From an uncultured Actinomycetes bacterium (GTDB lineage: Bacteria; Chloroflexota; Dormibacteria; Dormibacterales; Dormibacteraceae): a stretch of DNA of 57,968 nt. Both the position numbers and the translations under genes were made by a program. The notes under the pieces were generated by a model. The model was not told the DNA's origin, did not search any database, and saw only the letters and a list, made by a program, of their open reading frames with translations. Location: NCBI GenBank assembly GCA_964529765.1, contig CAZHAC010000001.1:1-57968 (forward strand). Reading direction: 5' to 3'. Position 1 is the stretch's first letter; each line of letters begins with the position of its first letter. Below, piece after piece: positions 6,770 through 25,655 of this stretch.

Positions 6770-6776
6770 GACCCAG

Positions 6777-7985: not shown

Positions 7986-7988
7986 GCG

Positions 7989-8789: not shown

Positions 8790-8832
8790 GCGGCCGAAAG
8801 ATTGCTTGACCACCTCTCCGGACCTCGATAAC

Positions 8833-8850
8833 CTACTGACGCGTTAGTAA
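8833..8850. promoter_or_regulatory. Operator-like inverted repeat, site 2 (CTACTGAC-GC-GTTAGTAA), with a candidate promoter
   Basis: Near-identical copy of site 1. TTGACC at 8806-8811 and TAACCT at 8829-8834 (17-nt spacer) make a plausible -35/-10 that overlaps the repeat. About 95 nt upstream of the SBP start. Confidence 0.6.
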
Positions 8851-8945
8851 GATGTGCCCCCTAGCGGAGGGTCGGGGCAGCGCGTCTGAGGTCAGCCCTA
8901 AAAGGCATTCCGCCGGCCCTTTTCGGCGGCGAGAACGGGAGCAGC

Positions 8946-10571
8946 ATGAAGATGCGATCAGTCGTTCGTCCCGGTAGACATCGGCTCGCGACCCTGGCGA
9001 CCGCGACCATGCTGCTGGCCAGCTGCGCCGGCGGCACCAATGGCGGCAACGCCTCCAGCACCCCCGTCTACGGTGGCGTGCTGAAGGTCGCGATGGACGC
9101 CGAAAGCCCGGGCTGGGTGCCCGGCTGTGCCACCATCGCCTACGCCGGGGGGTACATCCAATACGCCTGGTTCGACGGCATCACCGACTTCGACAAGAGC
9201 GGCAACACGATTCCCTTCCTGGCCGAGTCGGTCACCCCGAACTCCGATTTCACGCAGTGGACGGTGAAGCTGCGGAGTGGGGTCACCTTCTCCAACGGCA
9301 CGGCGCTTACCGCGCAGTCGCTGAAGGACGACTTCGACAACTACCTGAAAGTCAAGGGTTCCACGGCCGCCAGCCTCGTCGCCACCGTTAAGAGCGCGAC
9401 GGTTAGCGACCCCCAGACGATCGTCTTCGCGATGGCGGCGCCGGTGTCCGACTTCCCTTACACGCTCAGCCAGATCTGGGCGTTCGACCCGGCCACCAAG
9501 GACAAGTACGGGGCTCAGGACTACTGCAGCCACCCGATCGGCACCGGGGCCTTCCAGCTCAGCAGCTGGGACCGCAACAACCTGACCGTCGCCAAGAAGG
9601 TGAGCAGCTACTGGCGCAAGGATGGGAACAACAAGCTGCCCTACCTGGACGAGCTCGACTTCCGGCCCATTCCCAACAGCGACTCCCGATTCGCCGCGCT
9701 CCAGTCCGGTGACGTGGATGCGCTCTTCAGCCGAGACGCCGACACCCTGACGCGTGCCTCCAAGCTGCCCAACATCAAGGTCGCGACCTATGTCGCTAGT
9801 GGCGGCTACGGCCTCTTCTTCAACAACATGAAGGCGCCAGTCGACGACGTACGGGTTCGCCGCGCCCTCTCCGAGGCCACCAACAAACCGGCTGTGGTCG
9901 CCTCGGGCGGCGGCGACAAGCAGTACCAGATCGTTCGCGACGAGTACTACGCTCCCAACAGCCCCTACTACAGCCAGAAGGCCGCCGACGCATCGCCCAA
10001 GTTCGACGTCAACAAGGCGAAAGCCGATATCTCGGCCTACATCAACGATCCCAAACGGAGCGATGGCCAGCCGGTGGGGTCGCCGGTGAAGATCGAGATC
10101 TCGGTCACGCCTGACGCGGCCGCCAACGCCATGGTCCAGGTCGTGCAAGCGGAGTGGCAGCAAATCCAGGGCGTACAGGTGACCATCAACCAGAAGCAGG
10201 AGATCCCCCTTGTGCTTGACGCGATCAAGGGCAACTTCACCGTCAACTGGTTCGGTTGGAGCGACCAGCCGCCGTACTCGCTCTTCTCGCACAACTTCCT
10301 GCCCTATCCCGCCAACACCTCCAACTACGCGCACTTCAACAACGACACAGTGGTCTCGACGATCAATCAGCTGGCCCAGACCAACGATCCCGCCAAGACC
10401 AAGCAGCTGGCTGAGCGAATCCTGATGGTCTTCGCCGACCAGGTGCCGCTCATTCCGCTGACCACGACGCCAGTCGGCATCGCCTACAACACGAAGAAGG
10501 TCCACAACCTGGTGATGCAGCCGTCCTCCGTGGGCCATGTCGACTGGGCCACGGTCTACGTCACCAAGTAG
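8946..10571 (+). CDS. ABC transporter substrate-binding lipoprotein, family 5 (DppA/OppA type)
   Basis: Signal peptide with lipobox LLASCAG. 541 aa, followed by DppBCDF-like genes. Confidence 0.88.
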   Translation: MKMRSVVRPGRHRLATLATATMLLASCAGGTNGGNASSTPVYGGVLKVAMDAESPGWVPGCATIAYAGGYIQYAWFDGITDFDKSGNTIPFLAESVTPNSDFTQWTVKLRSGVTFSNGTALTAQSLKDDFDNYLKVKGSTAASLVATVKSATVSDPQTIVFAMAAPVSDFPYTLSQIWAFDPATKDKYGAQDYCSHPIGTGAFQLSSWDRNNLTVAKKVSSYWRKDGNNKLPYLDELDFRPIPNSDSRFAALQSGDVDALFSRDADTLTRASKLPNIKVATYVASGGYGLFFNNMKAPVDDVRVRRALSEATNKPAVVASGGGDKQYQIVRDEYYAPNSPYYSQKAADASPKFDVNKAKADISAYINDPKRSDGQPVGSPVKIEISVTPDAAANAMVQVVQAEWQQIQGVQVTINQKQEIPLVLDAIKGNFTVNWFGWSDQPPYSLFSHNFLPYPANTSNYAHFNNDTVVSTINQLAQTNDPAKTKQLAERILMVFADQVPLIPLTTTPVGIAYNTKKVHNLVMQPSSVGHVDWATVYVTK

Positions 10572-10610
10572 CCGGCGGAAACGGGTAGTCCAGGAAGGGG
10601 TAGCGGGGTT

Positions 10611-11600
10611 TTGAGGAGAGGTGGCCCCATCACCGGTTTCGCCGCCGCCGCGGCGAAGCGAGGCGGTCGCCTCCTCCTCACCCTGTTCGCCGTGAGCACA
10701 GCGGCCTTCCTGGTTACCTCGCTGATCCCCGGCAACGCCGCCTACCTGATCCTCGGGCCTGCCAACCTGACGCCCGAAAACATCGCCGCGGTCGAGCACG
10801 AGCTCGGCGTCGACGAGCCGCTGCCGCTGCGCTACGTGCACTGGCTCGGGCGCGTGCTGCACGGCGACTTCGGCTACTCCTACGTGCTCAACGACAGCGT
10901 TGGCCGGGAGATTCTCCACCACCTTCCTGTCTCCCTGGAGCTGATCGTTCTCAGCGTGATCATCGCGCTCGTGATCGCGGTTCCGCTCGGCGTGGCCAGC
11001 GCCTACCGGGTCGGGCGACCGATCGACCGCGTAATCTCCGCCCTCACATTCGGGCTGCTGGCGGTACCAGGCTTCGTGATGGCCCTCGTCCTGATCCTGG
11101 TCTTCGCAGTCAGCCTCCACATGCTTCCCTCGACTGGCTGGGTGCGCTTGCAGGAGGACCTGATCGGCAACCTCCAGGCCGCGCTTTTGCCCGCCCTTTC
11201 ACTGTCGGTGTCGCAGCTGGCGGTGTTCACGCGCCTCATGCGAAGCGAGATGATCTCCACCCTCCAGGAGGACTACATCGCCATGGCCCGGGCAAAGGGC
11301 CTGCCGACCCGGCGGATTCTCTTCCTGCACGCCTTCAAGCCCTCGTCCTTCCCGCTCCTGACCCTGGTCGGGATCCAGGTCGGGGTGCTGATCTCGGGCA
11401 CCGTGATCGTGGAGAGCATCTTCGGGCTGCCCGGCATCGGCAGCCTGCTGCTGACCTCGATCTACTCCCACGACTACGCGATGATCCAGGGCGTCACGCT
11501 CTTCGTCGCCACCGGGTTCGTGACCGTCAACTTTGCTGTCGACGCGCTCTACGCGGTGCTCGACCCCCGCGTACGCCGGCAGGGCCTGGCGGCGGCCTAG
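10611..11600 (+). CDS. ABC transporter permease (DppB/OppB type)
   Basis: Multi-span hydrophobic protein. The EAA-loop region is YIAMARAKGLPTRRILFLHAFKPS. The start (TTG 10611) is provisional. Confidence 0.88.
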   Translation: MRRGGPITGFAAAAAKRGGRLLLTLFAVSTAAFLVTSLIPGNAAYLILGPANLTPENIAAVEHELGVDEPLPLRYVHWLGRVLHGDFGYSYVLNDSVGREILHHLPVSLELIVLSVIIALVIAVPLGVASAYRVGRPIDRVISALTFGLLAVPGFVMALVLILVFAVSLHMLPSTGWVRLQEDLIGNLQAALLPALSLSVSQLAVFTRLMRSEMISTLQEDYIAMARAKGLPTRRILFLHAFKPSSFPLLTLVGIQVGVLISGTVIVESIFGLPGIGSLLLTSIYSHDYAMIQGVTLFVATGFVTVNFAVDALYAVLDPRVRRQGLAAA

Positions 11601-11610
11601 GTTTCTCGCG

Positions 11611-12522
11611 ATGGCGACCCCACTTGCCGCCCCGCCTCCGCCGGCCATCGCCGCGCGCTCGGAGGAACCAGCCTGGGGCGTCCTCGGCCGGGGGGCACGC
11701 GGCGCCGCGGGTTACGGTTCCGCTTTCTGGGTCTGCGTGGGCTGGCTGGTCCTTCTCGTGCTGGCGGCGCTGCTCGCCGGCTGGCTGCCCATCGCCAAGC
11801 CCAACGCGGTCGACCCCTTCGTCCGGCTCGAGCCTCCGCTTTCGCCAGGCCACCTGCTGGGGACTGACGACCTCGGCCGCGACGTGCTCAGCCGGATGGT
11901 TTACGGAGCCCGGGTGTCACTCTCAGTGGCCACTCTGTCGGTGGTCATCGGGATGGGCATCGGGCTCCCGGCCGGTATCGCCGCGGGCTACCTGCGTCAT
12001 CGAGTCGATGCCGTCGTCACCTTCCTTGTCGACGTCGTCCTGTCCTTCCCGGCGCTCGTCCTGCTGCTGGCCCTGATCGCTTACTTCGGACGCAGCCTCT
12101 TCATCATCGGCGCCCTGATCGGCTTTCTCTCGGTGCCCACCTACACCCGCATCGCCAGGGCGGCGACTCTGGCGGTGGCCGGCCGGGAGTTCGTCCTCGC
12201 GGCTCGTGCGATCGGTGCCCGCCCGGGCCGGATCATGCTCCGGGAGCTGCTCCCCAACGTCCTTCCGTCGGTCGCGGCCTACGGGCTCATACAGATGGGG
12301 GTTGCGATCGTGGTCGAGGGCTCGCTGAGCTTTCTCGGCCTCAGCGTCTCGCTGCCCACGCCCTCCTGGGGCGGTCTCATTGCGACCGGCCAGCACCACC
12401 TGGACGACGGGCCGACGTTGGTGCTGATCCCGTCTCTGGCGATGTTCCTGACCGTCTTCGCCCTGAACTTCATCGGCGACGGCGTCCGCCGGCGAAGCGA
12501 CCGGCGGGAGGGGGTCCTGTGA
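11611..12522 (+). CDS. ABC transporter permease (DppC/OppC type)
   Basis: ORF 11533.. trimmed to ATG 11611, 10 nt after the previous stop. HLLGTDDLGRDVLSRMVYGARVSL and FVLAARAIGARPGRIMLRELLPN are DppC-type motifs. Confidence 0.88.
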   Translation: MATPLAAPPPPAIAARSEEPAWGVLGRGARGAAGYGSAFWVCVGWLVLLVLAALLAGWLPIAKPNAVDPFVRLEPPLSPGHLLGTDDLGRDVLSRMVYGARVSLSVATLSVVIGMGIGLPAGIAAGYLRHRVDAVVTFLVDVVLSFPALVLLLALIAYFGRSLFIIGALIGFLSVPTYTRIARAATLAVAGREFVLAARAIGARPGRIMLRELLPNVLPSVAAYGLIQMGVAIVVEGSLSFLGLSVSLPTPSWGGLIATGQHHLDDGPTLVLIPSLAMFLTVFALNFIGDGVRRRSDRREGVL

Positions 12523-13526
12523 GCGGCGAACCAGTCCTGGTCGTCGACGGCCTGCAGGTCGAATTCGACTCGCCGAGGGGCACCGTCCACGCGGTCGCCG
12601 GCGTCTCCTTCGAGCTCGACGCGGGCTCGACGCTCGGCATCGTCGGCGAGTCGGGGTCGGGCAAGTCGGTGATGTGCCGGGCGATCATGGGCCTGCTGCC
12701 GGGGCGCCACGTGCATCGTCAAGGGCGGGTCGTGCTCGCGGGAAGGGAGGTCAGCGGCCTCACCGGCGGCGAGCTGCGGGAGCTGCTGGGGCCGGTCGTG
12801 GCGATGGTGCCGCAGCACCCGCGCACCTCTCTTAACCCGGTGCTCACGGTGGGCAGCCAGATCACGGAGTCGCTCCGCCTTCACCTCCGCCTCAGCAGTC
12901 GTGAGGCCACAGAGGAGGCGGTACAGCTGCTCGCCGCCGTCGGCATCCCGGAGCCCGGGCGCCGCTTCAAGCAGTACCCGCACGAGCTCTCGGGGGGTAT
13001 GTGCCAGCGGGTCACGATCGCCATGGCACTGTCCTGCCGTCCCCAGATTTTGATCGCCGACGAGCCGACCACCGCCCTCGACGTCACCGTCCAGGCTCAG
13101 ATCCTCGACCTCTTGAAGCAACTCCAGGTAGAACACCAGATGGCCCTGGTGCTGGTCACGCACGACCTCAGCATCGCTGCCGCCTGCACCGACCGGATCG
13201 CGGTCATGTACGCCGGCCGGTTCGTGGAGGAGGCGCCGACCGGACGGCTCTTCGACTCCATGCGCATGCCGTACACCGAGGCGCTGCTGGCTGCAATTCC
13301 CGACATCGACCGGCCCAGCCACTCGCGCCTGAGGGCGATCGAGGGGCAGCCGCCCGATCTCGCCGGCAAAATGCCCGGCTGCGCATTCGCACCGCGCTGC
13401 CCACACGTCCGGGAGCGGTGCCGCGAGGAAGAGCCGCCCTTGGTGGGCGAGGGCGGCCACCGCTTCGCCTGCTGGTACCCGCTCGCCGTCGACGCTCAAG
13501 CCAGGGTCTCCGCCCATGGCCGGTAG
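12519..13526 (+). CDS. ABC transporter ATP-binding protein (DppD/OppD type)
   Basis: Walker A GESGSGKS, signature LSGGMCQRV, Walker B LIADEPTTALD, and a Cys-rich oligopeptide-type C-terminus. GTGA overlap. Confidence 0.93.
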   Translation: MSGEPVLVVDGLQVEFDSPRGTVHAVAGVSFELDAGSTLGIVGESGSGKSVMCRAIMGLLPGRHVHRQGRVVLAGREVSGLTGGELRELLGPVVAMVPQHPRTSLNPVLTVGSQITESLRLHLRLSSREATEEAVQLLAAVGIPEPGRRFKQYPHELSGGMCQRVTIAMALSCRPQILIADEPTTALDVTVQAQILDLLKQLQVEHQMALVLVTHDLSIAAACTDRIAVMYAGRFVEEAPTGRLFDSMRMPYTEALLAAIPDIDRPSHSRLRAIEGQPPDLAGKMPGCAFAPRCPHVRERCREEEPPLVGEGGHRFACWYPLAVDAQARVSAHGR

Positions 13527-14538
13527 CGGCACCGCCCATCTTCGCCCGGCGACCGACGTGCTCCTGCGCGCCGAACAGGTGGTGGTCGAGTTCCCGGTCG
13601 CCGGCGGCCGCATCCACGCCGTCAGCGGGGTGAGCGTGGACGTCGGGCGCAAGGAGACGCTGGCCCTGGTCGGCGAGTCGGGCTGCGGCAAGTCGAGCCT
13701 GGCCATGGCCATCGCTCAGCTGCCCCGGCCGAACGCTGGGCGGGTCTTTTTGGAGGACACGGAGCTGACCTCTCTGCGCGGGGAGAGGATGCGGCAGGCG
13801 CGGCCGCGGATCCAGGTCGTCTTCCAGGATCCGATCGCGGCGCTCAACCCTCGCCGGACGGTGGCCGAGATCGTCGGCGAGCCCCTGGATGTCTGGAGAC
13901 GCGGCAGCCCAGAGGAAAGGCGGCGGCTGGTCGACTCGACCCTGGAGCGCGTCGGTCTCAATCCCGACCGAGTCCGCGACAAGCGGCCCCCCCAGCTGTC
14001 AGGCGGGCAGTGTCAGCGAGTCGCGATTGCTCGCGCACTGGTCCTCGGCCCCGACGTCCTGATCTGCGACGAGCCCGTGTCCAGCCTCGACGTCTCGATC
14101 CAGGCTCAGGTCTTGAACCTGCTCGAAGACCTGAAGCAGGCGTACGGGTTGACCATGCTCTTCATCTCGCACGACCTGGCGGTGGTGAAGAACGTCGCCG
14201 ATCGCATCGCCGTTATGTATCTGGGCAAGCTCTGCGAGTACGTCGGCCAGGTCGACGACCTCTACCGAGAGCCCGCCCATCCCTACACGGCGATGCTCCT
14301 GGCGTCGGTGCCACGTCGAGCCGTGGGCGGCCTGCGGGCAGTTCCAAAGGGCGAAGCGGCATCCCCGATGGCACCTCCCTCCGGCTGCCGATTCCGCACC
14401 CGGTGCCCACGCGCCGATGCCCGCTGCGCGGCCGAGGAGCCGGGGGTTCGGCAAGTGGCCAGCGGCCACTTCGTCGCCTGCCACCACCCCCTGATCGGTG
14501 CCGACTCCGGCCCTGCACTACAGGAGAACCAGCCATGA
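13516..14538 (+). CDS. ABC transporter ATP-binding protein (DppF/OppF type)
   Basis: GESGCGKS, LSGGQCQRV, LICDEPVSSLD. 11-nt overlap with the previous gene. Confidence 0.93.
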   Translation: MAGSGTAHLRPATDVLLRAEQVVVEFPVAGGRIHAVSGVSVDVGRKETLALVGESGCGKSSLAMAIAQLPRPNAGRVFLEDTELTSLRGERMRQARPRIQVVFQDPIAALNPRRTVAEIVGEPLDVWRRGSPEERRRLVDSTLERVGLNPDRVRDKRPPQLSGGQCQRVAIARALVLGPDVLICDEPVSSLDVSIQAQVLNLLEDLKQAYGLTMLFISHDLAVVKNVADRIAVMYLGKLCEYVGQVDDLYREPAHPYTAMLLASVPRRAVGGLRAVPKGEAASPMAPPSGCRFRTRCPRADARCAAEEPGVRQVASGHFVACHHPLIGADSGPALQENQP

Positions 14539-15383
14539 CCGCTACCGCCGCCACCCTTCCCGGATACAGCGCCTATGAGACGCTCGAAATCGTCAAGCGG
14601 GGATCGATCCTCGACGTCCGACTCAACCGGCCTGAAGCCCGCAACGCGATGACGTTCAAGATGGACGCCGAGCTCGACCTCATCCTCGACGAAGCCGAGG
14701 ATGACCCCGAGGTGGCAGCGGTCACGCTGCGCGGCAACGGCGTCCACTTCTGCGCCGGGCACGACCTCAAGGAGGTGGCCACCGGCTACCGCACGGAGGG
14801 CCGTCCGTCAGGGCTGCCCAAGGACATGGCGCGCCCGCACATGCCGCGTGCCTGGTACTTCAAAAAGCCTTTCATTGCCGGCGTCCACGGCTATGTGGGC
14901 CCGATGGCCAACCATCTCATCGCGGCCTGCGACTTCGTGATCGCGGCCGAGGGCACCCGCTTCAGCTTCGAGCAGACACGCATGGGTGGTGGCGCCGCCG
15001 GGGGCACAATCCTCAACTTCCAGCTGCCGATGCGAGTGGTCAAGAAGCTCTGGCTGATGGGGGGCTGGTTCGACGCGGAGAAGGCGCTGGCGATGGATTA
15101 CGTGCAGCGTGTGGTGGCGCTCGAGGACCTCGAAGCGGAGACGATGCGATGGGCGGAAGAGGCGGCCAAGATCCCTGCCGAGCAGTACGTCGGCGCCAAG
15201 GAGATGATCCACCGCTGCTACGAGATCCGCGGCCTGGTCGGCATCGCCATGATCCAGAACAAGGTCTCGGGCCACGGCAGCGTCAAGGACCGCAAGTTCT
15301 TCGAGATGGTCCAGGAGTTGGGACTCAAGGAGGCGCTCAAGTGGCGCGACGCCCAGTTCGACCAGTCGGTCGCCCGGATCTGA
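14535..15383 (+). CDS. Crotonase-fold protein, MenB/BadI-like subfamily (paralog 0)
   Basis: ORF 14010.. trimmed to ATG 14535 (ATGA overlap, CAGGAG upstream). LNRPEARNAM, HFCAGHDLKEVATGY...AWYFKKPFIAGVHGYVGP...FSFEQTRMGGGAAGG, C-terminal LKEALKWRDAQFDQSVARI. Confidence 0.85.
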   Translation: MTATAATLPGYSAYETLEIVKRGSILDVRLNRPEARNAMTFKMDAELDLILDEAEDDPEVAAVTLRGNGVHFCAGHDLKEVATGYRTEGRPSGLPKDMARPHMPRAWYFKKPFIAGVHGYVGPMANHLIAACDFVIAAEGTRFSFEQTRMGGGAAGGTILNFQLPMRVVKKLWLMGGWFDAEKALAMDYVQRVVALEDLEAETMRWAEEAAKIPAEQYVGAKEMIHRCYEIRGLVGIAMIQNKVSGHGSVKDRKFFEMVQELGLKEALKWRDAQFDQSVARI

Positions 15384-15384
15384 G

Positions 15385-17316
15385 TTGATGGCGACGACCG
15401 CTCAGGTCTCGGATGTCCGCGCCGCCGTGGAAGCGCTGCTCAACCCCCGCAGCGTCGCCTTCCTGGGCGCGTCACGGGATCCGGCGGCGCCGAGCAACAT
15501 GTTCATCGGTCAGCTGACCGCGCCTGGCAGCGGCTTCAACGGGAAGATCTTCCCGATCAACCCCAACGCCGAGGAGATCGCTGGTCACCGCGCCTATCCG
15601 AACGTCGGGGCGGTACCGGAGCCGATCGACGTGGCGGTGGTCATGCAGACCTGGGAGCGGGCGGTGGAGGGGCTCCGCGACTGCGCCGGCGCCGGGGTGA
15701 AGGCGGTGTTCATGCTCTCCGCCGTCCCGCAGGAGCCGGGTCGCTTCAACGACGCCATCCGGGAGGCGATCGCCGGGACGCCGTTGCACGTCCTCGGTCC
15801 CAACTGCCTCGGCACCTACAACCTGCTCGAGAACATCTCCATGACCGCCGGCTTCCCGCCTCCGCGTGGGGCGCACCGGCCGGGCACCGGGGTGGCGGCG
15901 ATCGGCCACAGCGGTGGCTCGCTGCTCGGCGTGGCTTCACATGCGGTGGAGATGGGCGTGCCTTTCTCCTACTTCGTGAGCTGCGGCAACGAGGCCGACC
16001 TCAAGTTCGACGACTTCGTCGACTGGTTCCTCGACCAGCCCGACGTGAAGGTGGTTGTCTGCTACCTGGAGGAGATCCGCCGGCCCCGGCGTCTACTGGC
16101 GCTGGCCGGTCGGGCTCGCGAGCTGGGCAAGAGCATCGTCGCCGTAAAGGTGGGCCAGTCGGAGGAGAGTGCCGCGGTTGCCCTGTCACACACCTACTCG
16201 TTCACGGGGCCCTTCGACATCCAGCTGGCGCACCTGCGCCGGCACGGGATCGTGTGGGCAAACAGCATGTCGCAGGCGGCTGCCTTCATCACGGCGCTTC
16301 GCGCCGAACCGCTGCCGCCTGCCCCGGGAGTAGGAGTTCTGACCACGACCGGTGGCATCTCGGCAACGCTGGCCGAGGTGATGAACCGCAGCGGCGTCCC
16401 GCTTCCCCAAGCGGAACCGGCTTTCGGGCGCATCTACGATCTGCTGGCGCCGTCCAACATGCAGGACCCCCTGGTCCACAACCCGGTCGACCTGGGAGCG
16501 CCCGGTGTCCACAACGACGAGCTCTGGCAAGCGGCCGCGGTCGCCCTCCTCGACCAACCCGAGATTGGCACCCTGCTTGTGGTCACAACCGCCAACACCT
16601 GGAAGGAGCGCATTCCGACCGCCCGGTCGGCGGCGAGCGATCGCGGCAAGGCTCTTTCCGTCTATCTCTATATGACGCAGACGGCGAGCTATAAGAAGGG
16701 CGGCGATCTGCCGATCGGCAACTTCGACGAGCTGGCCGCGGATGGCGTCCCCGTCTTCACCTCCGAAGTCGAGTGTGCGGAGGCCCTTCGGATGCTGATC
16801 GACCGCAGCCGCTTCCTCGCCGAGCCGGCGCCACCGGGTCCGGGCGAGGGTGAGCTCAGCGGACCGGAGACGCTGGTTCCGATCGCCGAGGAGGAGGTCC
16901 TGGCCTGGCTTGGGGCCCACGGGATAGCGGCGGGCACCGCAGCGGGCGCCGAGCCGGAATGGCTGGTAGGGGTCCGCAACGACTTCGGCTTTGGTCCGGT
17001 GGTCAGCGTCCGCGCCGCCGGCGTGCTCGGAGAGGCGGCGGCCGAGGCGGCTCTGATCCCGGCCCCGGCCACCGCTCGAGAGGCCGAGCACGCCATCACC
17101 AGCCTCCGGGCCGCCGCCGCGCTTAAGCGCTACGGCCGCTTCTCCACGCCCGGTCGTGCCGGCCTGGCCGCGTTCGCGGCCGGGTTGAGCAGGCTCGCCT
17201 GGGAGCACCGGAACGACCTCGCCGAGCTCGATCTCGAGCTGGCGGCGGCGAACGATGGCAGCTGGGTGGCGAGGGCTGCTCCGCGCGGCGTCGCTCGTCC
17301 CGGAGGGCTGCGTTGA
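15385..17316 (+). CDS. NDP-forming acyl-CoA synthetase-like / CoA-binding-domain protein
   Basis: LLNPRSVAFLGASRD...GKIFPINPNAEEIAGHRAYPNVGAVPEPIDVAVVM is a CoA-binding domain. It is followed by a succinyl-CoA-synthetase-like flavodoxin domain containing LSHTYSFTG. The C-terminus is Ala-rich and poorly recognisable. Confidence 0.75.
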   Translation: MMATTAQVSDVRAAVEALLNPRSVAFLGASRDPAAPSNMFIGQLTAPGSGFNGKIFPINPNAEEIAGHRAYPNVGAVPEPIDVAVVMQTWERAVEGLRDCAGAGVKAVFMLSAVPQEPGRFNDAIREAIAGTPLHVLGPNCLGTYNLLENISMTAGFPPPRGAHRPGTGVAAIGHSGGSLLGVASHAVEMGVPFSYFVSCGNEADLKFDDFVDWFLDQPDVKVVVCYLEEIRRPRRLLALAGRARELGKSIVAVKVGQSEESAAVALSHTYSFTGPFDIQLAHLRRHGIVWANSMSQAAAFITALRAEPLPPAPGVGVLTTTGGISATLAEVMNRSGVPLPQAEPAFGRIYDLLAPSNMQDPLVHNPVDLGAPGVHNDELWQAAAVALLDQPEIGTLLVVTTANTWKERIPTARSAASDRGKALSVYLYMTQTASYKKGGDLPIGNFDELAADGVPVFTSEVECAEALRMLIDRSRFLAEPAPPGPGEGELSGPETLVPIAEEEVLAWLGAHGIAAGTAAGAEPEWLVGVRNDFGFGPVVSVRAAGVLGEAAAEAALIPAPATAREAEHAITSLRAAAALKRYGRFSTPGRAGLAAFAAGLSRLAWEHRNDLAELDLELAAANDGSWVARAAPRGVARPGGLR

Positions 17317-18230
17317 TCGACGCTCGCCAGTACCTGGATCACCTCCGGGCGGTGGTCGAGATCAACGGCATGCAGGTGTCCGAGATCGTCGCCCCCGCCG
17401 AGCACGAGGTCGTGCTGCGGGGTCTCCGCCTCCACTACCACGATTGGGGGAACGAAGCGGCGCCCCCGCTGCTCTTCCTGCACGGCGGCGGTCTCACGGC
17501 CCACACGTGGGACGTGGTCTGCCTGGCCCTGCGGGCCTACTTTCACTGCCTGGCCCTCGACTTCCGCGGTCACGGCGACAGCGATTGGGCCGAGGTCTAC
17601 GACATCGAGACCCACACCGACGACGTGCGCGCGCTGGTCGAGCATCTTGGAATCGAGCCCGGCCGGCTCCATCTCGCGGGCATGTCGATGGGCGGGATGG
17701 TGGCAGTGCGCTACGCGGGCCGGTTCAACGACCTGGCTTCGCTGACCGTCATCGACGTCGGCCCCGAGCTGCCGCGGAGCGACGGCGCGCGCCGGATCGA
17801 GAACTTCATCGACGGCGCCGAACTGGACTCGATCGACGACTTCATCAAGCGCTCCCTGGCCTTCAACCCGCGCCGCGATCCGGATCTTCTGCGGCAGAGC
17901 CTGCTCCACAACCTGCGCCAGCTGCCGAACGGGAAGTGGACCTGGAAATACGACCGCCGCCACTACCAGCTGGATCGCGACCCGAAAGAGTTCCTGGAGT
18001 TCGTCCGGGCCACCTGGTCGAAGGTCCCGGAGATCAGCTGCCCTGCCCTGGTGGTGAAAGGCGGCGACAGCGACATCCTCTCTGAAGCGACCGCCCGGAG
18101 GCTGGCCGAGTCATTCCCCTCCGGGCGCTACGTGGTGGTGCCCAACGCGGGCCATACCGTACAGGGCGACAACCCGGCCGGCCTCGCCGCCCGCATGCTG
18201 GAGTTCCTGGGCGAGGTGGCGGGGCGGTGA
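17313..18230 (+). CDS. Alpha/beta-fold hydrolase
   Basis: LFLHGGGLTAHTWD, nucleophile elbow GMSMGG and C-terminal NAGHTVQ. TTGA overlap. Confidence 0.88.
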   Translation: MIDARQYLDHLRAVVEINGMQVSEIVAPAEHEVVLRGLRLHYHDWGNEAAPPLLFLHGGGLTAHTWDVVCLALRAYFHCLALDFRGHGDSDWAEVYDIETHTDDVRALVEHLGIEPGRLHLAGMSMGGMVAVRYAGRFNDLASLTVIDVGPELPRSDGARRIENFIDGAELDSIDDFIKRSLAFNPRRDPDLLRQSLLHNLRQLPNGKWTWKYDRRHYQLDRDPKEFLEFVRATWSKVPEISCPALVVKGGDSDILSEATARRLAESFPSGRYVVVPNAGHTVQGDNPAGLAARMLEFLGEVAGR

Positions 18231-19000
18231 CGACGAGGCCGCTGCGGATCCTGCACACGTCCGACCTTCACCTCGGCGATGGATCCGGTACGCCGGGACC
18301 GCTTCGGCACTCGCCCCGCTGCCTCTGTGCTCTGGACGCGCTCGCCGAGGCTGCGGCGCAGTCTGCATCCGACCTCGTGGTAATTGCCGGTGACGTGTTC
18401 GAGAGCGCTCGAGTGCCGGATGCGATCCTGGGAGCTGCGGCAGAGGCGCTGAGCGCCATGTGCGTGCCGGTCGTCGTCCTCCCCGGCAACCACGACCACT
18501 TCGCCGAGGGTTCTCTCTACCATCGCCCAGCCTGGCGGGAAGCCGCCGGCAGGGTCCATGTCATCGGCTCCGAGAGCGGGGAGTGGCTCCGCTTCCCCGA
18601 GCTCGGCCTCAGCTTATGGGGCCGGGCAGTCCACGAACACTCCCCCGACCACCGCCCTCTCCAGGCGGTGCCTGGGCGCCCCGAAGGCGATTGGTTCGTG
18701 GTCGTCGCCCACGGCCACTACCTGGAGGCCCGCGAACTCGCCCCCGGATGGCCCCGGCGCTCGTCGCCGATCCTGCCCGGCGACCTCCACGCCATCAACG
18801 CCGACTACGTCGCCCTCGGTCATTGGGACGTCTGCACGAGGGTCGGCGACAACGGGCTCGAAAGCTGGTACTCAGGCGCCCCGGTGCTGGGCGGAAAGGC
18901 CGCGACCGTCCTTTGCGCCAGCCTCAGCCCTGGCTCGCAAACCCGCGTCGAGCGAGTCCCGATGCCCTCAGGTTCCGATCACTGCTCGAGGAAGGTGTGA
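18227..19000 (+). CDS. Calcineurin-like metallophosphoesterase
   Basis: ILHTSDLHLGD, AGDVFE, LPGNHDH, VVAHGH. GTGA overlaps at both ends. Confidence 0.85.
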   Translation: MTTRPLRILHTSDLHLGDGSGTPGPLRHSPRCLCALDALAEAAAQSASDLVVIAGDVFESARVPDAILGAAAEALSAMCVPVVVLPGNHDHFAEGSLYHRPAWREAAGRVHVIGSESGEWLRFPELGLSLWGRAVHEHSPDHRPLQAVPGRPEGDWFVVVAHGHYLEARELAPGWPRRSSPILPGDLHAINADYVALGHWDVCTRVGDNGLESWYSGAPVLGGKAATVLCASLSPGSQTRVERVPMPSGSDHCSRKV

Positions 19001-20589
19001 TCTTGTCCGACACTCCCAGGACCCTGCCCGCCATCATCGCCGCCCGGGCCGCCAGCGAGCCCAACCGGCCGCTCATCCAGCACGTCGACGGGACCACCGT
19101 CAGCTACGGCGAGCTCCACCACCGCAACCTCCGCTTCGCCGGCGCCTACGCGGCGCTCGGCGTGGGCGAGGGAGACATGGTGGCGACGATGATGCCGAAC
19201 GGCATCGAGACCTACAGCGCCTGGCTGGGGCTCTCGTGGCTGCGGGCGGTGGAGGTCCCCCTCAACGTGGCCTACCAGGGGCCGATGCTCAGCTACACCA
19301 TCAATTACTCGCGGGCGAGCCTGCTGGTGATCAGCGCCGAGTACCTGGAGCGGCTGCGGCCGATCGCCTCCGAGCTCGAGCACCTGCGGACCGTGGTTGT
19401 GCTCGACTCCGATGACGTCGAGGCCGCCCTCCCCTTCAGGCTGGTGACGCGCAGCGAGTTCCTGAAGCCGGCCCCCGCCGGCGAGCTGGCGCCACCCGAG
19501 CTCTGGGACACGGTCGCGCTGATCTTCACCTCGGGGACCACCGGGCGCTCCAAGGGCGTGCTGGTGCCGTGGGGGCAGATGTTCTACAACGTTCGCCCCG
19601 ACCCCACGCTGCTCAACGAGACCGGCGCCTACTACTCGACCTGGCCGACCTTTCACATGTCGGGCAAGTACGCGCTCTATCAGCCGGCGCGGATCGGCGC
19701 CCGGCTGGCTCTCCGGCCCCAGTTCAGTGCCTCGGCCTACTGGGAGGACGTCCGCCGCTTCGGCTGCACGAGCGCGATGATCCTGCCCCCGATGCTCAAG
19801 TTCCTGCTCCTCCAGCCGGAGCTGCCCGACGACCGCGACAACCCGCTGGTCGGGTTCAACCACGGCCCTGTCGTCCCGGAGGTCTGGGAGTTCTGCGAAC
19901 GATTCGGGACCAGGTTCCGATCCGGCTTCGGAATGACCGAGATCGGCGGCCCGCTGCAGACCGGCTGGATGCCCAAGAACCCGAAGTCGAGCGGGCGGCC
20001 GGTCGAGGGGCCGCCCTATTACGACATCAAGGTCGTCGACTCCCACGACGACGAGCTGCCGCCCGGCGAGATTGGCGAGCTGGTGGTCCGGAGCCGGCTG
20101 CCATGGGCGATCATGTCCGGCTACTTCGGATTGCCGGAGGCCACCGCCGCCGCCTGGCGCAATGGTTGGTTCCATACCGGAGACGGCTTTATCAAGGACG
20201 AGGCGGGCGAGTTCTTCTTCGTCGACCGCATGAAGGACTACATCCGGCGGCGCGGCGAGAACATCTCCTCCTTCGAGGTCGAGGCGTACGTTGCCGCCCA
20301 TCCCGCCGTGCTCGAGGTGGCCGCCTTCGGCATTCCGTCCGAGTACGGCGAGGACGAGGTCAAGGTCTGCGTCATCCGGCGGCCGGGCAATGAGGCGCTG
20401 ACGCCCGCCGACCTGCACGCCCAGCTCGCCTCGATCATGCCGTCATTCATGCTGCCGCGCTTCATCGAGTTCGTGGAGGCGCTCCCGCGCACGGATGCCA
20501 CGGGCCGCGTCAAGAAGGTCGAGCTGAAGCCGGACGCCCGCAATGACCGCACGTGGGACCGCGAGGCCGACACCGTCAGGGTCAAGTGA
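18997..20589 (+). CDS. AMP-forming acyl-CoA synthetase/ligase
   Basis: ORF 18460.. trimmed to GTG 18997 (GTGA overlap). FTSGTTGRSKGV, GWFHTGD, RRGENISSFEVE, and the C-terminal GRVKK lysine region. Confidence 0.9.
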   Translation: MILSDTPRTLPAIIAARAASEPNRPLIQHVDGTTVSYGELHHRNLRFAGAYAALGVGEGDMVATMMPNGIETYSAWLGLSWLRAVEVPLNVAYQGPMLSYTINYSRASLLVISAEYLERLRPIASELEHLRTVVVLDSDDVEAALPFRLVTRSEFLKPAPAGELAPPELWDTVALIFTSGTTGRSKGVLVPWGQMFYNVRPDPTLLNETGAYYSTWPTFHMSGKYALYQPARIGARLALRPQFSASAYWEDVRRFGCTSAMILPPMLKFLLLQPELPDDRDNPLVGFNHGPVVPEVWEFCERFGTRFRSGFGMTEIGGPLQTGWMPKNPKSSGRPVEGPPYYDIKVVDSHDDELPPGEIGELVVRSRLPWAIMSGYFGLPEATAAAWRNGWFHTGDGFIKDEAGEFFFVDRMKDYIRRRGENISSFEVEAYVAAHPAVLEVAAFGIPSEYGEDEVKVCVIRRPGNEALTPADLHAQLASIMPSFMLPRFIEFVEALPRTDATGRVKKVELKPDARNDRTWDREADTVRVK

Positions 20590-20608
20590 AAAGGAGGTCG
20601 AAGACGAC

Positions 20609-21427
20609 TTGGGTGACTGGAACACGCTGCTGACCGAGCGGGACGGTGACGTCCTCCACGTGTGGCTCAACCGGCCCGACGCGCGCAACGCGTGGACGGC
20701 CGAGATGCACCACGAATTCGACCGCGTCCTCGACGAGGCGGAGGACGACCCCGGCGTGAAGGTGGTGACGCTGCGTGGGAAAGGCAAGATCTTCTCGGCC
20801 GGGCACGACCTCAAGGAGGTCGCCGGGGGCTATGCGAGCACCGGCCAGCCGGGGGGTTGGAACCCGCACGAAGTGCCTCACATCCGGCGACCGTGGTACT
20901 TCCCCAAGCCGCTCATCGCCGGCGTCCACGGCTATGTGGGGCCGATCGCCTTTGCCATCCTGACCTGCTGCGACTTCATCCTCGCGGTCGACGGCACCCG
21001 CTTCTCGTTCGAGCAAGCCAGGATGGGGGGTGGGGCCCCGGGGGCCAGCCCTCAGGTCTTCCACTTCCGCCCGTCGGTCTGGAAGAAGCTGCTGATGATG
21101 GGCGGCTGGATGGACGCCGGCCAGGCAAAAGACCTCCATTTCGTGGCCCGGGTGCTCGCCGACGAGGCCGCGCTCGACGCCGAGATCCGGCACTGGGCGC
21201 AGCAGCTGGCGCTGGTGCCGTCCAAGCAGGTGCGAGCGGCCAAAGTAGGCATCCATCGCCAGTACGAGCTGATGGGGCTGGCGCGGATGGGCCTGGTCCA
21301 GAACCGGGAGTCGGGCCATGGCTCGCCCGAGGACATGCAGTGGTTCTCGACAGTCATGGATAAGGGGCTCAAGGAGGCGCTGAAGGAGCGCGACGCGCAG
21401 TTCGACCAGGAGGTTTCGCGTGTCTGA
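20609..21427 (+). CDS. Crotonase-fold protein, MenB/BadI-like subfamily (tandem paralog 1)
   Basis: TTG 20609 chosen because AAGGAGG sits at 20591-20597 and the N-terminus (L)GDWNTLL aligns with MGNWETII of paralog 2. 272 aa. Confidence 0.85.
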   Translation: MGDWNTLLTERDGDVLHVWLNRPDARNAWTAEMHHEFDRVLDEAEDDPGVKVVTLRGKGKIFSAGHDLKEVAGGYASTGQPGGWNPHEVPHIRRPWYFPKPLIAGVHGYVGPIAFAILTCCDFILAVDGTRFSFEQARMGGGAPGASPQVFHFRPSVWKKLLMMGGWMDAGQAKDLHFVARVLADEAALDAEIRHWAQQLALVPSKQVRAAKVGIHRQYELMGLARMGLVQNRESGHGSPEDMQWFSTVMDKGLKEALKERDAQFDQEVSRV

Positions 21428-21450
21428 GGCGCGACAAGGAGGAAGCAGCC

Positions 21451-22269
21451 GTGGGTAACTGGGAGACGATCATCGCCGAGAAGGAGGGCCCGATCTACCA
21501 CCTCTGGCTGAACCGCCCAGATGCGCGCAACGCCTGGACGGCGAAGATGCACTGGGAGGTCGACCGGGCGCTCGACGAGGCCGAGGACGACCCCGAGATC
21601 AAGGTGGTCACGCTCCGCGGGAAGGGCAAGATCTTCTCGGCCGGCCACGACCTCAAGGAGGTTGCGGGCGGCTACGCGACCCGTGGCGAGCCGGGCGGCA
21701 TCGATCCTCACCGCGTGCCGGCCATGGAAAGGGCCTGGTACTTCCCGAAGCCGGTCATCGCCGGTGTTCACGGATACGTAGGACCGATCGCCTGGAACTT
21801 CCTCGCCCACCTCGACGTGGTGCTGGCGGTGGAAGGGACGCGCTTTTCGCTCGAGCAGGCGCGGATGGGCGGCGGGGCCCCGGGAGGCACGCCGCTGGTC
21901 CTTCACTTTCCACCGAGCGTCTGGAAAAAGCTGCTGATGGCCGGCGGCTGGATGGATGCCCAGCAGGCGAAGGACTTCCACTTCGTGGCCCGCATAGTCC
22001 CGGATGAGGAGGCTCTCGACCGGGAGATCCGGCACTGGGCGGAGCAGGCCGCGCTGGTCCCCGCCCAGCAGCTGGGAGCGGCCAAGCTCGGCATCCACCG
22101 CCAGTACGACCTGATGGGCCTGGCCAACATGGCGCTGGTCCAGAACCGGGAGTCCGGGCATGGGTCGCCCGAGGACATGAAGTGGTTCACGACCGTGATG
22201 GACAAGGGGCTCAAGGAAGCGCTGAAGGAGCGCGACGCCCAGTTCGACCAGGAGGTATCGAGGGTATGA
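21451..22269 (+). CDS. Crotonase-fold protein, MenB/BadI-like subfamily (tandem paralog 2)
   Basis: GTG start 8 nt after AAGGAGG. 272 aa and co-linear with paralog 1 over its full length. Confidence 0.88.
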   Translation: MGNWETIIAEKEGPIYHLWLNRPDARNAWTAKMHWEVDRALDEAEDDPEIKVVTLRGKGKIFSAGHDLKEVAGGYATRGEPGGIDPHRVPAMERAWYFPKPVIAGVHGYVGPIAWNFLAHLDVVLAVEGTRFSLEQARMGGGAPGGTPLVLHFPPSVWKKLLMAGGWMDAQQAKDFHFVARIVPDEEALDREIRHWAEQAALVPAQQLGAAKLGIHRQYDLMGLANMALVQNRESGHGSPEDMKWFTTVMDKGLKEALKERDAQFDQEVSRV

Positions 22270-23123
22270 CACAGGCTGCTGTGAGGCCAGGGGAGGCACT
22301 TCCCATCCCCACCTACAACACGTTGATCCTGGAGCGCGAGGGGCAGACGCTCCACATCTGGCTCAACCGCCCGGACGCCCGCAACGCCTGGACCGCCGAG
22401 ATGCACCACGAGTTCGATCGCGCCCTCGACTTCGCCGAGGACGATCCGGCGACAAAGGTCGTCGTCGTCCGCGGCAAAGGCAAGATCTATTCCGCCGGCC
22501 ACGATCTGAAGGAGGTTTCAGGGGGCTACGCGACCGAGGGCAAGCCGGGCGGCTGGGATCCCCACGAGATACCGCACATCAACCGCGCCTGGTACCTCAC
22601 CAAGCCGATCATCGCCGGCGTTCACGGCTACGTCGGGCCGATCGCCTGGCACATCACGGCCCACTTCGACTTCGTCCTCGCCGTCCGCGGGACACGATTC
22701 TCCTTCGAGCAGGCGCGGATGGGCGGCGGCGGGCCGGGCGGCACCCCGCTGGTCTTCCACTTCCCGCCGATGGTCTGGAAGAAGCTGCTCATGTTCGGCG
22801 GCTGGATGGACGCCGAGCAGGCGCTGGACTTCAACTTCGTGGCCCGGTTGGTGGAGGATGAGGACGAGCTCGACCGAGAGGTGCGCCATTGGGCTGAGCA
22901 GCTCGCGCTGGTTCCTTCCAAGCAGCTGCGGGCGGCCAAGATCGGCATTCACCGCCAGTACGAGCTCATGGGCCTGGCCGACATGGAGCTGGTCCAGAAC
23001 CGGGAGTCGGGTCACGGCTCGCCGGAGGACATGAAGTGGTTCTCGACGGTGATGGACAAGGGCTTGAAGGAGGCGCTCAAGGAGCGCGACGCCCAGTTCG
23101 ACCAGGAGGTGTCGCGGGTCTAG
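22266..23123 (+). CDS. Crotonase-fold protein, MenB/BadI-like subfamily (tandem paralog 3)
   Basis: ORF 22182.. trimmed to ATG 22266 (ATGA overlap with the paralog 2 stop). 285 aa, with a 13-aa N-terminal extension. Confidence 0.88.
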   Translation: MTQAAVRPGEALPIPTYNTLILEREGQTLHIWLNRPDARNAWTAEMHHEFDRALDFAEDDPATKVVVVRGKGKIYSAGHDLKEVSGGYATEGKPGGWDPHEIPHINRAWYLTKPIIAGVHGYVGPIAWHITAHFDFVLAVRGTRFSFEQARMGGGGPGGTPLVFHFPPMVWKKLLMFGGWMDAEQALDFNFVARLVEDEDELDREVRHWAEQLALVPSKQLRAAKIGIHRQYELMGLADMELVQNRESGHGSPEDMKWFSTVMDKGLKEALKERDAQFDQEVSRV

Positions 23124-23145
23124 CCCGCCAAACGTAGGTAATCCG

Positions 23146-23889
23146 ATGTTTCGGTTCGACGGCCGCGTCGTTCTCGTCACCGGCGGGACGCGCGGCCTCG
23201 GACGGGCCATTGCCGAGGGCTTCGCGACCGCCGGCGCCGACGTCGGCCTGGTGAGCCGCAAGCCCGAGGCCCTGGCCGCTGCCGCGACTGCGATCGCGGC
23301 CGCCGGCCGGCGGCGGGTGGAATGGTTTCCGTGCAACGTGTCCCACTGGGACGCGCTGGAGCCGCTGATCGACGCGGTCTACGAGCGTTTCGGCCGCCTC
23401 GACGTGCTCGTCAACAACGCCGGCCTGTCGCCCCTCTACGACTCACCGGCAGCGATAACGGAGGCGCTCTTCGACAAAGTCGTTGGCGTCAACCTCAAGG
23501 GCCCGCTTCGTCTCTGTGCGCTGGCCGGCGAGCGGATGGCGGCGGCAGGCGGCGGGGTGATCATCAACATGAGCAGCACAGTCGCGCGTAACCCGAGACC
23601 GAACGTCATCCCGTACGCGGCGGCCAAGGCCGGGGTCGAGGCGATGACCACCGCTTTCGCGCACGCCTACGGGCCCGCGGTGCGGGTCAACTGCATCGTC
23701 CCAGGTCCCTTCCTCACCGACGTCAGCCGGCACTGGGACATGGAGCACATGGAGCGCTGGGCGACCGGCTTTGCGCTCCGCCGCCTGGGCAGGCCAGAGG
23801 AGATCGTGGGCGCGGCCCTCTACCTCGCCTCTGACGCCGCGTCCTACACGACCGGCATCATGCTCGAGGTGGCCGGCGGGGAACCCTAG
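23146..23889 (+). CDS. Short-chain dehydrogenase/reductase (FabG-like)
   Basis: VTGGTRGLGRAIA, VNNAG, YAAAKAG. 247 aa. Confidence 0.9.
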   Translation: MFRFDGRVVLVTGGTRGLGRAIAEGFATAGADVGLVSRKPEALAAAATAIAAAGRRRVEWFPCNVSHWDALEPLIDAVYERFGRLDVLVNNAGLSPLYDSPAAITEALFDKVVGVNLKGPLRLCALAGERMAAAGGGVIINMSSTVARNPRPNVIPYAAAKAGVEAMTTAFAHAYGPAVRVNCIVPGPFLTDVSRHWDMEHMERWATGFALRRLGRPEEIVGAALYLASDAASYTTGIMLEVAGGEP

Positions 23890-25653: not shown

Positions 25654-25655
25654 GC

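Follow-up and report, generated by a model that had tools for sequence, protein, structure and literature searches.

Importers of the PepT family of ATP-binding cassette (ABC) transporters (Opp/Dpp/Nik/Gsi, TC 3.A.1.5) are routinely annotated as transporters of peptides or nickel, and orphan clusters of coenzyme A (CoA)-dependent catabolic genes are common in Actinomycetota. The pairing of an NDP-forming acyl-CoA synthetase (ACD) with a crotonase has a precedent in FerA/FerB of Sphingobium SYK-6, the family of FerA being unconfirmed, and ATP-driven dehydration of an alcohol is known for 4-hydroxyacyl-CoAs. Such dehydration is known for 25-hydroxysteroids as well: the 25-hydroxysteroid kinase isolated in Sterolibacterium is followed by an inferred lyase step that eliminates the phosphate, a tertiary alcohol being dehydrated at the cost of ATP (PMC8449060, PMC11061730). 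In a stretch of 57,968 nucleotides from an uncultured Actinomycetes bacterium (contig CAZHAC010000001.1; the whole stretch is hereafter the window), we found 14 co-directional genes on the + strand, spanning 8946-23889 from the start of a substrate-binding protein (SBP) gene to the stop of a short-chain dehydrogenase/reductase (SDR) gene, in which the genes of a PepT-type importer are translationally coupled to nine enzyme genes. The locus is an orphan ABC-importer-linked, CoA-dependent catabolic cluster, and we consider it likely (probability about 0.6) that it is a catabolic regulon by which this uncultured actinobacterium imports an organic acid and breaks it down via CoA thioesters, the acid being probably hydroxylated and ester- or phosphoester-conjugated. 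The open reading frame listing and Pfam scans gave the following genes.

8946-10571, + strand: SBP, family 5 lipoprotein (SBP_bac_5, 212 bits; signal peptide, lipobox LLASC)
10611-11600, + strand: ABC permease 1 (BPD_transp_1 and BPD_transp_1_N)
11611-12522, + strand: ABC permease 2 (BPD_transp_1)
12519-13526, + strand: ABC ATPase 1 (ABC_tran and C-terminal oligo_HPY)
13516-14538, + strand: ABC ATPase 2 (ABC_tran and C-terminal oligo_HPY)
14535-15383, + strand: crotonase ECH1 (ECH_1; its clade accompanies ACD and importer)
15385-17316, + strand: ACD-like protein of the NDP-forming acyl-CoA synthetase superfamily (alpha His, SHT, kept; ATP-grasp core lost)
17313-18230, + strand: alpha/beta-fold serine hydrolase (GMSMG nucleophile motif, C-terminal His)
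18227-19000, + strand: small metallophosphoesterase (intact DxH, GD, GNHD, H and GH motifs)
18997-20589, + strand: AMP-forming acyl-CoA ligase of the PRK06155/CaiC-like group (AMP-binding)
20609-21427, + strand: crotonase ECH2 (ECH_1)
21451-22269, + strand: crotonase ECH3 (ECH_1)
22266-23123, + strand: crotonase ECH4 (ECH_1)
23146-23889, + strand: classical SDR oxidoreductase, last gene of the unit (SDR; stop 3 nt from the convergent AtuA stop)

The original prediction, made from the sequence alone, had assigned 14 same-strand genes to these families and listed the 13 junctions between them. Our recomputation of coordinates, strands and start and stop codons agreed with it, as did Pfam (SBP_bac_5, two BPD_transp_1, two ABC_tran with oligo_HPY, ECH_1, and CoA_binding_2 with Succ_CoA_lig and a partial ATP-grasp_5, followed by alpha/beta hydrolase, Metallophos, AMP-binding, three ECH_1 and SDR), and the junction values were identical: 39, 10, -4 (GTGA), -11, -4 (ATGA), +1, -4 (TTGA), -4 (GTGA), -4 (GTGA), 19, 23, -4 (ATGA) and 22 nt. 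There is an overlap or a 1-nt gap at 8 of the 13 junctions, and the widest gap is 39 nt. That no gap holds a terminator-like structure was also borne out, since the seven terminator-like matches between 7500 and 24500 compare with 6.1 +/- 3.1 in shuffled sequences and none falls within a + strand intergenic gap. Folding of the four longer gaps and of the 3' end gave z values of -0.5 to +0.7 against shuffles, i.e. not unusually structured, and an Rfam scan of the whole window returned no match. The sequence is compatible with a single transcript from 8946 to 23889. The G+C content at third codon positions is 0.81-0.94 in each called frame of the unit, and the ratio of nonsynonymous to synonymous substitution rates (dN/dS) against the closest relative (contigs L001 and L007, below) is 0.06-0.19 for every shared gene, indicating that these are real genes under selection.

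The importer has the complete PepT-type architecture: beside the family 5 SBP there are two permeases of the BPD_transp_1 type, and both ATPases end in an oligo_HPY domain. The signal peptide and lipobox LLASC of the SBP provide an export signal, in keeping with its actinobacterial relatives in sequence searches. The SBP belongs to no named substrate class (NikA, GsiB, OppA, DppA or opine/CntA), its scores being 45-129 bits against cut-offs of 393-1098; for example, the NikA model gave 129 bits (cut-off 393), GsiB 103 (cut-off 594), OppA 64 (cut-off 947) and DppA 62 (cut-off 1005). We rejected a nickel, glutathione or oligopeptide importer on these sub-cut-off scores together with the CoA-enzyme context of the relatives. 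Upstream of the SBP gene we found no structured leader or riboswitch, as the fold of this region was no better than that of shuffles (z = -0.18).

All six independent contexts in which relatives of the SBP, permeases or ATPases were found contain CoA-thioester enzymes, the flanking types being crotonases, CoA ligases, acyl-CoA dehydrogenases (ACADs) or CoA transferases. This argues that the link between importer and CoA chemistry is functional and not accidental, and it upholds the earlier proposal of a PepT-type importer joined to CoA-thioester enzymes in one compact unit; because the window itself is rich in CoA and lipid genes, the argument is based on conservation across genomes. Two contigs of one Joint Genome Institute (JGI) sample, L001 (ATPase-ATPase-ECH1-ACD-hydrolase) and L007 (ECH2-ECH3-ECH4-SDR), have the same gene order as the window at 80-96% amino-acid identity. 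Contig L002 has the order GntR-ACD-permease-permease, with identities to the window of 40%, 65% and 64% for the last three, and in L003/L004 an ECH1-type crotonase (60%) adjoins an ACD (41%). A 28.6-kb contig (JGI 3300047160) carries, on one strand, ECH-ACD (697 aa)-permease-permease-ATPase-ATPase-alpha/beta hydrolase (304 aa)-Metallophos (258 aa), in addition to the best distant relative of the window SBP (46%), an IclR regulator, a family III CoA transferase, SDRs, a second family 5 SBP and a further crotonase of the ECH1-4 subfamily. SBP orthologues of 43-44% identity, with permeases and ATPases of 54-59%, are found in L088 and L089/L090 in the order AMP ligase-APH-Rv3169 family-ECH-Amidohydro_2-SnoaL-Amidohydro_2-SBP-ABC-ECH-ACAD-CoA transferase, and the gene tables of L171/L172, with SBP orthologue P0247 (45%), show the same L088-type architecture. 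An entire orthologous group of PepT-type importers is therefore wired to CoA-thioester catabolism, and many of the peptide or nickel annotations of such importers in Actinomycetota are probably wrong.

The cluster recurring in these metagenomes (L088, L089/L090 and L171/L172) can be written as Amidohydro_2-AMP ligase-APH-Rv3169 family-ECH-Amidohydro_2-SnoaL_4-Amidohydro_2-(Dabb)-SBP5-ABC-ECH (250 aa)-ACAD-CoA transferase III; it is strongly conserved, and no description of it was found in the literature and database searches made. Amidohydro_2, SnoaL and Dabb genes are carried by these SBP-linked clusters.

A second family 5 SBP importer lies on the - strand of the window, with its SBP at 49011-50618, permeases at 48021-49001 and 47224-48024 and an ATPase at 45243-46280. 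It is flanked by genes for an adenosine deaminase (50631-51695), an inosine-uridine nucleoside hydrolase (44299-45282) and an Exo_endo_phos protein (43452-44246), and beyond it lie a divergent GntR/UTRA regulator (51800-52573) and an M20 peptidase (52570-53829). The importer of this 43452-53829 region apparently serves non-peptide, perhaps nucleoside, catabolism.

A neighbour-joining tree splits the crotonase subfamily represented by ECH1 to ECH4 into two clades. Members of the ECH1 clade (ECH1, L001, L004 and P0207) adjoin ACDs and the importer, and those of the ECH2-4 clade (L005, L006, L008, L009 and L173) lie near AMP-forming ligases: in the first four of these the crotonase adjoins a ligase 42-56% identical to that of the window, and L173 has two tandem crotonases of the clade with an AMP-binding ligase, identified by Pfam alone, nearby. 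These two associations show that the 14-gene unit is a fusion of two separately conserved modules, of which module A comprises the importer, an ECH1-type crotonase, ACD, alpha/beta hydrolase and metallophosphoesterase, and module B the AMP-forming ligase, ECH2-4-type crotonases and SDR. In the neighbourhoods compared, the importer-CoA-enzyme link recurs in distant relatives and module A in other arrangements. In addition, the suggestion that the substrate may be ester- or phosphoester-linked gains support, as the hydrolase and metallophosphoesterase travel as a pair with importer, ACD and crotonase on a distant contig in a different order. Elsewhere, the neighbours of the ECH2-4 clade include KshA-like Rieske oxygenases, flavin/Baeyer-Villiger-type and luciferase-like monooxygenases, cupins, Dabb proteins and SDRs. 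In two Pseudonocardiaceae loci, L006 and L008 (an Amycolatopsis genome and a Pseudonocardia metagenome-assembled genome), an ECH2-4-type crotonase and AMP ligase are accompanied by an FMO/Baeyer-Villiger-type monooxygenase and a cupin, which suggests a CoA-ester-dependent oxygenative variant of module B.

The original prediction of an NDP-forming acyl-CoA-synthetase-like protein after ECH1 holds for the CoA_binding_2 and Succ_CoA_lig domains and for the phosphorylatable alpha His, ALSHTYSFTG aligning to AASHTGSIAG of 4xyl, but not for the ATP-binding core of the ATP-grasp domain, which has been lost. The match to ATP-grasp_5 covers no more than positions 109-203 of the 221 in the profile, and a complete ATP-grasp with nucleotide-binding core and beta His (HKSD/E-x-GGV) is absent. 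Specifically, about 65-70 residues of the core (GYPxVLK...HKSDxGGV) are deleted in the window protein and its 80% relative P0002, and this segment is kept in every other aligned ACD, including the 37-39% relatives and generic ACDs. Because the deleted segment holds what we take, from the ACD mechanism, to be the nucleotide-binding lysine and the second phosphohistidine, the protein would be unable to couple to NDP/NTP and probably does not function as an NDP-forming synthetase. The gene is under purifying selection, with a dN/dS against L001 2997-4925 of 0.19 overall, 0.13 in the N-terminal 405 residues and 0.27-0.29 in the remainder. An indexed search returned one ACD relative at 80% identity and the next only at 37-39%; in an exhaustive search of 1.84 billion cluster representatives the protein formed its own 50% cluster and only three clusters exceeded 300 bits, all of 702-710 aa, by which the deletion appears restricted to this lineage. 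Among the matches listed for a metagenome scan with the ACD alignment there were only generic ACDs of <=33% identity. The closest solved relatives include 3-hydroxypropionate- and 4-hydroxybutyrate-CoA ligases, and the position of the gene beside a crotonase gene suggests that the acid is first activated and that the crotonase then acts on the thioester. On the 3300047160 contig, where the ACD is full-length (697 aa), no AMP ligase occurs in about 24 kb of gene tables, and it is plausible that in the window lineage an acquired AMP-forming ligase took over activation from the ACD. The locus also supplies a naturally occurring case of an NDP-forming synthetase that has degenerated but stays under selection next to an AMP-forming ligase.

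ECH1 had been described as MenB/BadI-like, an identity that we ruled out, since it scored 75-82 bits against cut-offs of 343-468 (TIGR01929 menB, 77/343; PRK07396, 82/380; TIGR03210 badI, 75/468) and is 54-57% identical to ECH2-4, which are 75-78% identical to one another. The HCHL/FerB-type model gave 88 bits against 276, and across the MenB, BadI, CaiD, PaaF and HCHL models the scores were 3-6 times under the cut-offs. The four proteins constitute one uncharacterised crotonase subfamily, with ECH_1 fold scores of 81-114 bits, a conserved oxyanion-hole motif FSAGHDL and a G-x-V-G segment. We aligned them with E. coli PaaF, PaaG, CaiD, MenB and ScpB, taking PaaF and CaiD as Glu-Glu references, the other window crotonases (7989-8789 and 39804-40610) being without this pair. 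The canonical enoyl-CoA hydratase pair (GxELA and PE motifs) is missing from ECH1-4: the first catalytic Glu column of PaaF/CaiD holds His, Ala, Asn and His in ECH1, 2, 3 and 4, respectively, and the second holds Gln in all four, with an invariant Glu one residue before it in place of the usual Pro. FSAGHD is shared with ScpB, but the ScpB Tyr140 loop is not. Residues invariant in the subfamily include H66, D67, H107, E135, K159-K160, GGW/W167 and H216-R217, and there is a 12-residue C-terminal insertion. Each paralogue has its own 92-95% identical orthologue in the relative, with a dN/dS of 0.06-0.08, the lowest in the operon, indicating that the duplications are old and the copies non-redundant. 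The second-best solved relative of ECH1 is 3-hydroxypropionyl-CoA dehydratase. A scan of species-representative genomes with the crotonase alignment found three loci above 40% identity (L008, L009 and L010), the other 77 being generic crotonases, and a search of a plasmid collection with ECH3 found no match. C-C bond processing by ECH1-4 is a guess.

For the hydrolase, the closest solved relative is 3p2m/6wym, a 'possible hydrolase', and for the phosphoesterase it is the Mre11/SbcD nuclease domain, in its N-terminal part only; neither structure gives information on the substrate. The hydrolase matched short-chain polyhydroxyalkanoate (PHA) depolymerase models weakly. All five metallophosphoesterase motifs and the catalytic motifs of the hydrolase are intact. 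The AMP ligase is 31% identical to E. coli CaiC and scores under the PRK06155 cut-off. In L007 a transposase gene, and not AtuA as in the window, lies 3' of the SDR gene, which indicates that the SDR gene is the 3' end of the unit and that the AtuA/carboxylase cluster is a separate neighbour.

Upstream of the SBP gene, we found a second, tightly packed unit of five + strand genes and two copies of a 22-bp element, as follows.

4085-4106, + strand: 22-bp element copy 1, TACTGACTCGTTAGTAAGATG, a 16-nt imperfect palindrome with a TAAGAT -10-like hexamer, ending 26 nt before ATG 4132
4132-5265, + strand: Rv3169-family protein (DUF7065), putative phosphate-eliminating lyase (NCBIfam NF053593, 260 bits against a cut-off of 150)
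5262-6293, + strand: APH-family kinase (Pfam APH, 117 bits)
6290-6769, + strand: 159-aa protein without Pfam or NCBIfam matches, its start overlapping the preceding gene by 4 nt
6777-7985, + strand: thiolase, acetyl-CoA C-acyltransferase (Thiolase_N/C; TIGR01930, 456 bits against a cut-off of 240)
7989-8789, + strand: crotonase ECH0, PRK05981/PaaG-like, of another subfamily than ECH1-4 (30% identity to ECH1)
8834-8855, + strand: 22-bp element copy 2, TACTGACGCGTTAGTAAGATG, in the 156-nt gap 5' of the SBP gene

The palindrome pattern occurs exactly twice in the window, at 4085 and 8834, compared with 0.12 occurrences expected, and none of 100 shuffles contained two or more. Aligned, the two copies are identical at 21 of 22 positions, TACTGAC[T/G]CGTTAGTAAGATG, with the TAAGAT -10-like hexamer at the end. 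We regard the repeat as a putative promoter/operator element; as it is common to both units, the 14-gene unit is not isolated but belongs to a functional island of about 19 genes (4085-23889) under one putative shared operator. No match to the element was found in the other loci examined.

The Rv3169-family protein matches the 25-phosphosteroid lyase structures PDB 9fzn/9g2i/9g4c (E=6e-29) over residues 11-191 only, and the kinase matches 3dxp, 9fsg (APH-like protein), 8v3v/8v3u (ACAD11) and 3ats, with E values of 1e-18 to 1e-22, resembling Rv3168 and the ACAD11 kinase domain. The locus has the gene pair expected of the 25-hydroxysteroid kinase/25-phosphosteroid lyase type, an APH kinase and a lyase homologue, here encoded by adjacent, overlapping genes, which would fit ATP-dependent dehydration through a phosphoester. 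In L088 and L089, too, the trio APH-Rv3169 family-ECH is syntenic with the SBP orthologues, and the tables of L171/L172 show APH-unknown-ECH. Literature searches for DUF7065 gave nothing relevant, and the window contains no steroid-core or molybdenum hydroxylase genes.

Several other CoA and lipid genes lie downstream in the window. The SDR stop at 23889 is separated by 3 nt from the stop of a convergent gene of the AtuA family (23893-26070, - strand), leaving no space for terminators, and behind this gene are a biotin carboxylase (26417-28351), a carboxyltransferase (28348-30069) and a TetR regulator (29964-30566); the genes from AtuA to TetR form an Atu/Liu-like acyl-CoA carboxylase cluster. 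A block at 32222-41788 resembles side-chain degradation genes, with a nitronate monooxygenase, an ACAD, an SDR, a MaoC/MFE-2-type hydratase, a SnoaL_4 protein, an SCP-x-type thiolase (37052-38383, - strand) adjoining a protein with ACP_syn_III_C and a ChsH2-type OB-fold (38268-39743, - strand), a crotonase and an ACAD. Further on are two head-to-head, 5'-truncated remnants, one at 42061-42789 (- strand) corresponding to about residues 340-516 of an AMP-forming ligase and one at 42835-43413 (+ strand) corresponding to an SDR without its first ~85 residues. The segment 42061-43413 looks like a deletion scar, in which both N-termini and the shared promoter region were removed.

Taken together, the data are best explained by the catabolic regulon introduced above, which might operate as follows. 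The substrate would be imported by the PepT-type importer, and the serine hydrolase and metallophosphoesterase would take off an ester- or phosphate-linked group. The free carboxylate would then be converted to a CoA thioester, in this lineage probably by the AMP-forming ligase, given the loss of the nucleotide-binding core from the ACD-like protein; the latter may survive only as a CoA- or acyl-CoA-binding partner. The four non-redundant crotonases, without the classical Glu-Glu pair, could carry out hydration, dehydration, isomerisation or retro-Claisen steps, the SDR would oxidise a hydroxyacyl-CoA and the thiolase would cleave the oxoacyl-CoA. The kinase/phospho-lyase pair may serve for ATP-driven dehydration of an alcohol that a crotonase cannot eliminate. 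The earlier statement that no described pathway could be named for this gene content proved correct, in that none was found in family libraries or in literature searches for clusters of ACD, crotonase and ABC transporter.

Several points weigh against this interpretation. Only about eight independent contexts were available for comparison, a small sample, and the general richness of the window in CoA and lipid genes weakens any argument from neighbours within the window alone. No component reaches an equivalog-level family cut-off, and the roles of the individual crotonases, the hydrolase and the phosphoesterase are assigned from family membership and co-occurrence only. The unit has no acyl-CoA dehydrogenase, so that the scheme works only for substrates already unsaturated, hydroxylated or oxo-substituted. 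The structure of the operon transcript is a prediction from sequence, the function of the 22-bp element as promoter/operator is putative, and next to neither copy did we find a regulator gene in the window, in which the sole TetR gene (29964-30566) belongs to the Atu-like cluster.

As to the nature of the acid, the neighbours of the ECH2-4 clade may indicate that cyclic or branched acids are catabolised oxidatively, as may the Atu-like, Ltp/ChsH2-like and MaoC genes of the window, and the weak affinities of ACD and ECH1 for hydroxy-acid enzymes may point to short hydroxy-acids. If the substrate were derived from a steroid, bile acid or terpenoid, i.e. an alicyclic or isoprenoid carboxylic acid such as a steroid or terpenoid acid already degraded in part, dehydration of a tertiary alcohol would fall to the kinase/phospho-lyase pair, as happens when sterol side chains are degraded anaerobically, and the crotonases would be ring or side-chain hydratases or hydrolases. 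The upstream 25-phosphosteroid lyase homologue and the resemblance of the APH protein to Rv3168 and the ACAD11 kinase domain (PMC8449060) are consistent with this, as are the AtuA and acyl-CoA carboxylase cluster, the SCP-x-type thiolase and ChsH2-type OB-fold pair, the MaoC hydratase and several ACADs of the window. The KshA-like Rieske oxygenases, flavin/Baeyer-Villiger-type and luciferase-like monooxygenases, cupins and SDRs beside ECH2-4-type crotonases elsewhere agree with it too, and Rhodococcus jostii RHA1 has an ABC importer of cholate metabolites, CamABCD (PMC8399759), whose transporter family is unconfirmed. However, the lyase homology is limited to residues 11-191, the hallmark steroid-core genes KstD, KshA, HsaA-D, IpdAB and FadD3 are all absent from the window, and oxygenase neighbours of this kind also suit aromatic catabolism. 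We consider a steroid or terpenoid substrate unlikely. Salvage of short hydroxy-acids or oligo-esters is, in our view, very unlikely. Here 3- or 4-hydroxyalkanoate oligomers or conjugates (polyester breakdown products) would be imported and cleaved by the hydrolase, and the monomers would pass as CoA esters to acetyl-CoA by dehydratase/hydratase pairs, SDR and thiolase, with the kinase/lyase pair handling 4-hydroxyacyl-CoA as in the Lva and ACAD10/11 routes. The hydroxy-acid-CoA ligases and 3-hydroxypropionyl-CoA dehydratase among the nearest structures of ACD and ECH1, the PHA depolymerase matches of the hydrolase, the ACAD11 match of the APH protein and the presence of hydratase, dehydrogenase and thiolase but not ACAD all agree with it; these matches, however, are far under family cut-offs, and unrelated proteins from the respective superfamilies match no worse. 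This reading also leaves unexplained why there is a phosphoesterase and why four crotonase paralogues would be needed, and the Lva and ACAD10/11 routes depend on an eliminase of the ACAD type, of which the island has none.

That an importer for peptides, nickel or a metallophore lies by chance next to unrelated lipid and CoA genes is disfavoured and, in our estimate, highly improbable. The best family models of the SBP are indeed NikA, GsiB and OppA, the window is dense in CoA enzymes, and tight packing with overlapping stops and starts is common in high-GC actinobacteria, but the best of these scores (NikA, 129 bits) is far from its cut-off of 393 and those for the other models are lower, the stop of ATPase 2 overlaps the start of ECH1, importer, crotonase, ACD, hydrolase and phosphoesterase recur in shuffled order at 40-65% identity, and every one of the six importer contexts contains CoA enzymes. 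Within the catabolic regulon that we prefer, a more specific combination can be put forward tentatively, and we regard it as doubtful: module A would be an undescribed CoA pathway for a (phospho)ester-conjugated acid with new crotonase chemistry not based on Glu-Glu, the ACD would be in the course of replacement by the AMP ligase, and the kinase/phospho-lyase pair would act on a new substrate class. The locus provides handles for a new catabolic route, namely an SBP for ligand screening, two ligases, four crotonase paralogues and an esterase/phosphoesterase pair, and the kinase homologue paired with a phospho-lyase homologue may be of use in extending the concept of ATP-dependent dehydration to substrates other than sterol side chains. 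The payoff is likely to be a new substrate and pathway assignment and not a new principle.

Compared with the known systems, the window resembles the 25-hydroxysteroid kinase/25-phosphosteroid lyase of Sterolibacterium denitrificans and ACAD10/11 in having an APH kinase and a lyase homologue, but in S. denitrificans no candidate lyase gene lies beside the kinase gene (PMC8449060), whereas here the two are adjacent; in addition, the window pair has no molybdenum hydroxylases nearby, stands in a CoA-dependent context and shows lyase homology in the N-terminal half only. The ACD-like protein shares its fused alpha-beta domain order and alpha His with the DMSP lyase DddX (PDB 7cm9) and with 3-hydroxypropionate- and 4-hydroxybutyrate-CoA ligases, but unlike NDP-forming acyl-CoA synthetases it is missing the ATP-grasp core, and the adjacent crotonase is not of the HCHL/FerB type. 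ECH1-4 share the ECH_1 fold with PaaF, CaiD, MenB, BadI and ScpB, and their pairing with a ligase is as in CaiC/CaiD or MenE/MenB, whereas H/A/N/H and Gln at the Glu columns and their own invariant residues set them apart. Finally, the importer has the full component set of the PepT family, with one permease N-terminally extended, but its SBP is far under all named equivalogs, and its orthologues are embedded in CoA-thioester clusters, not beside peptidases.

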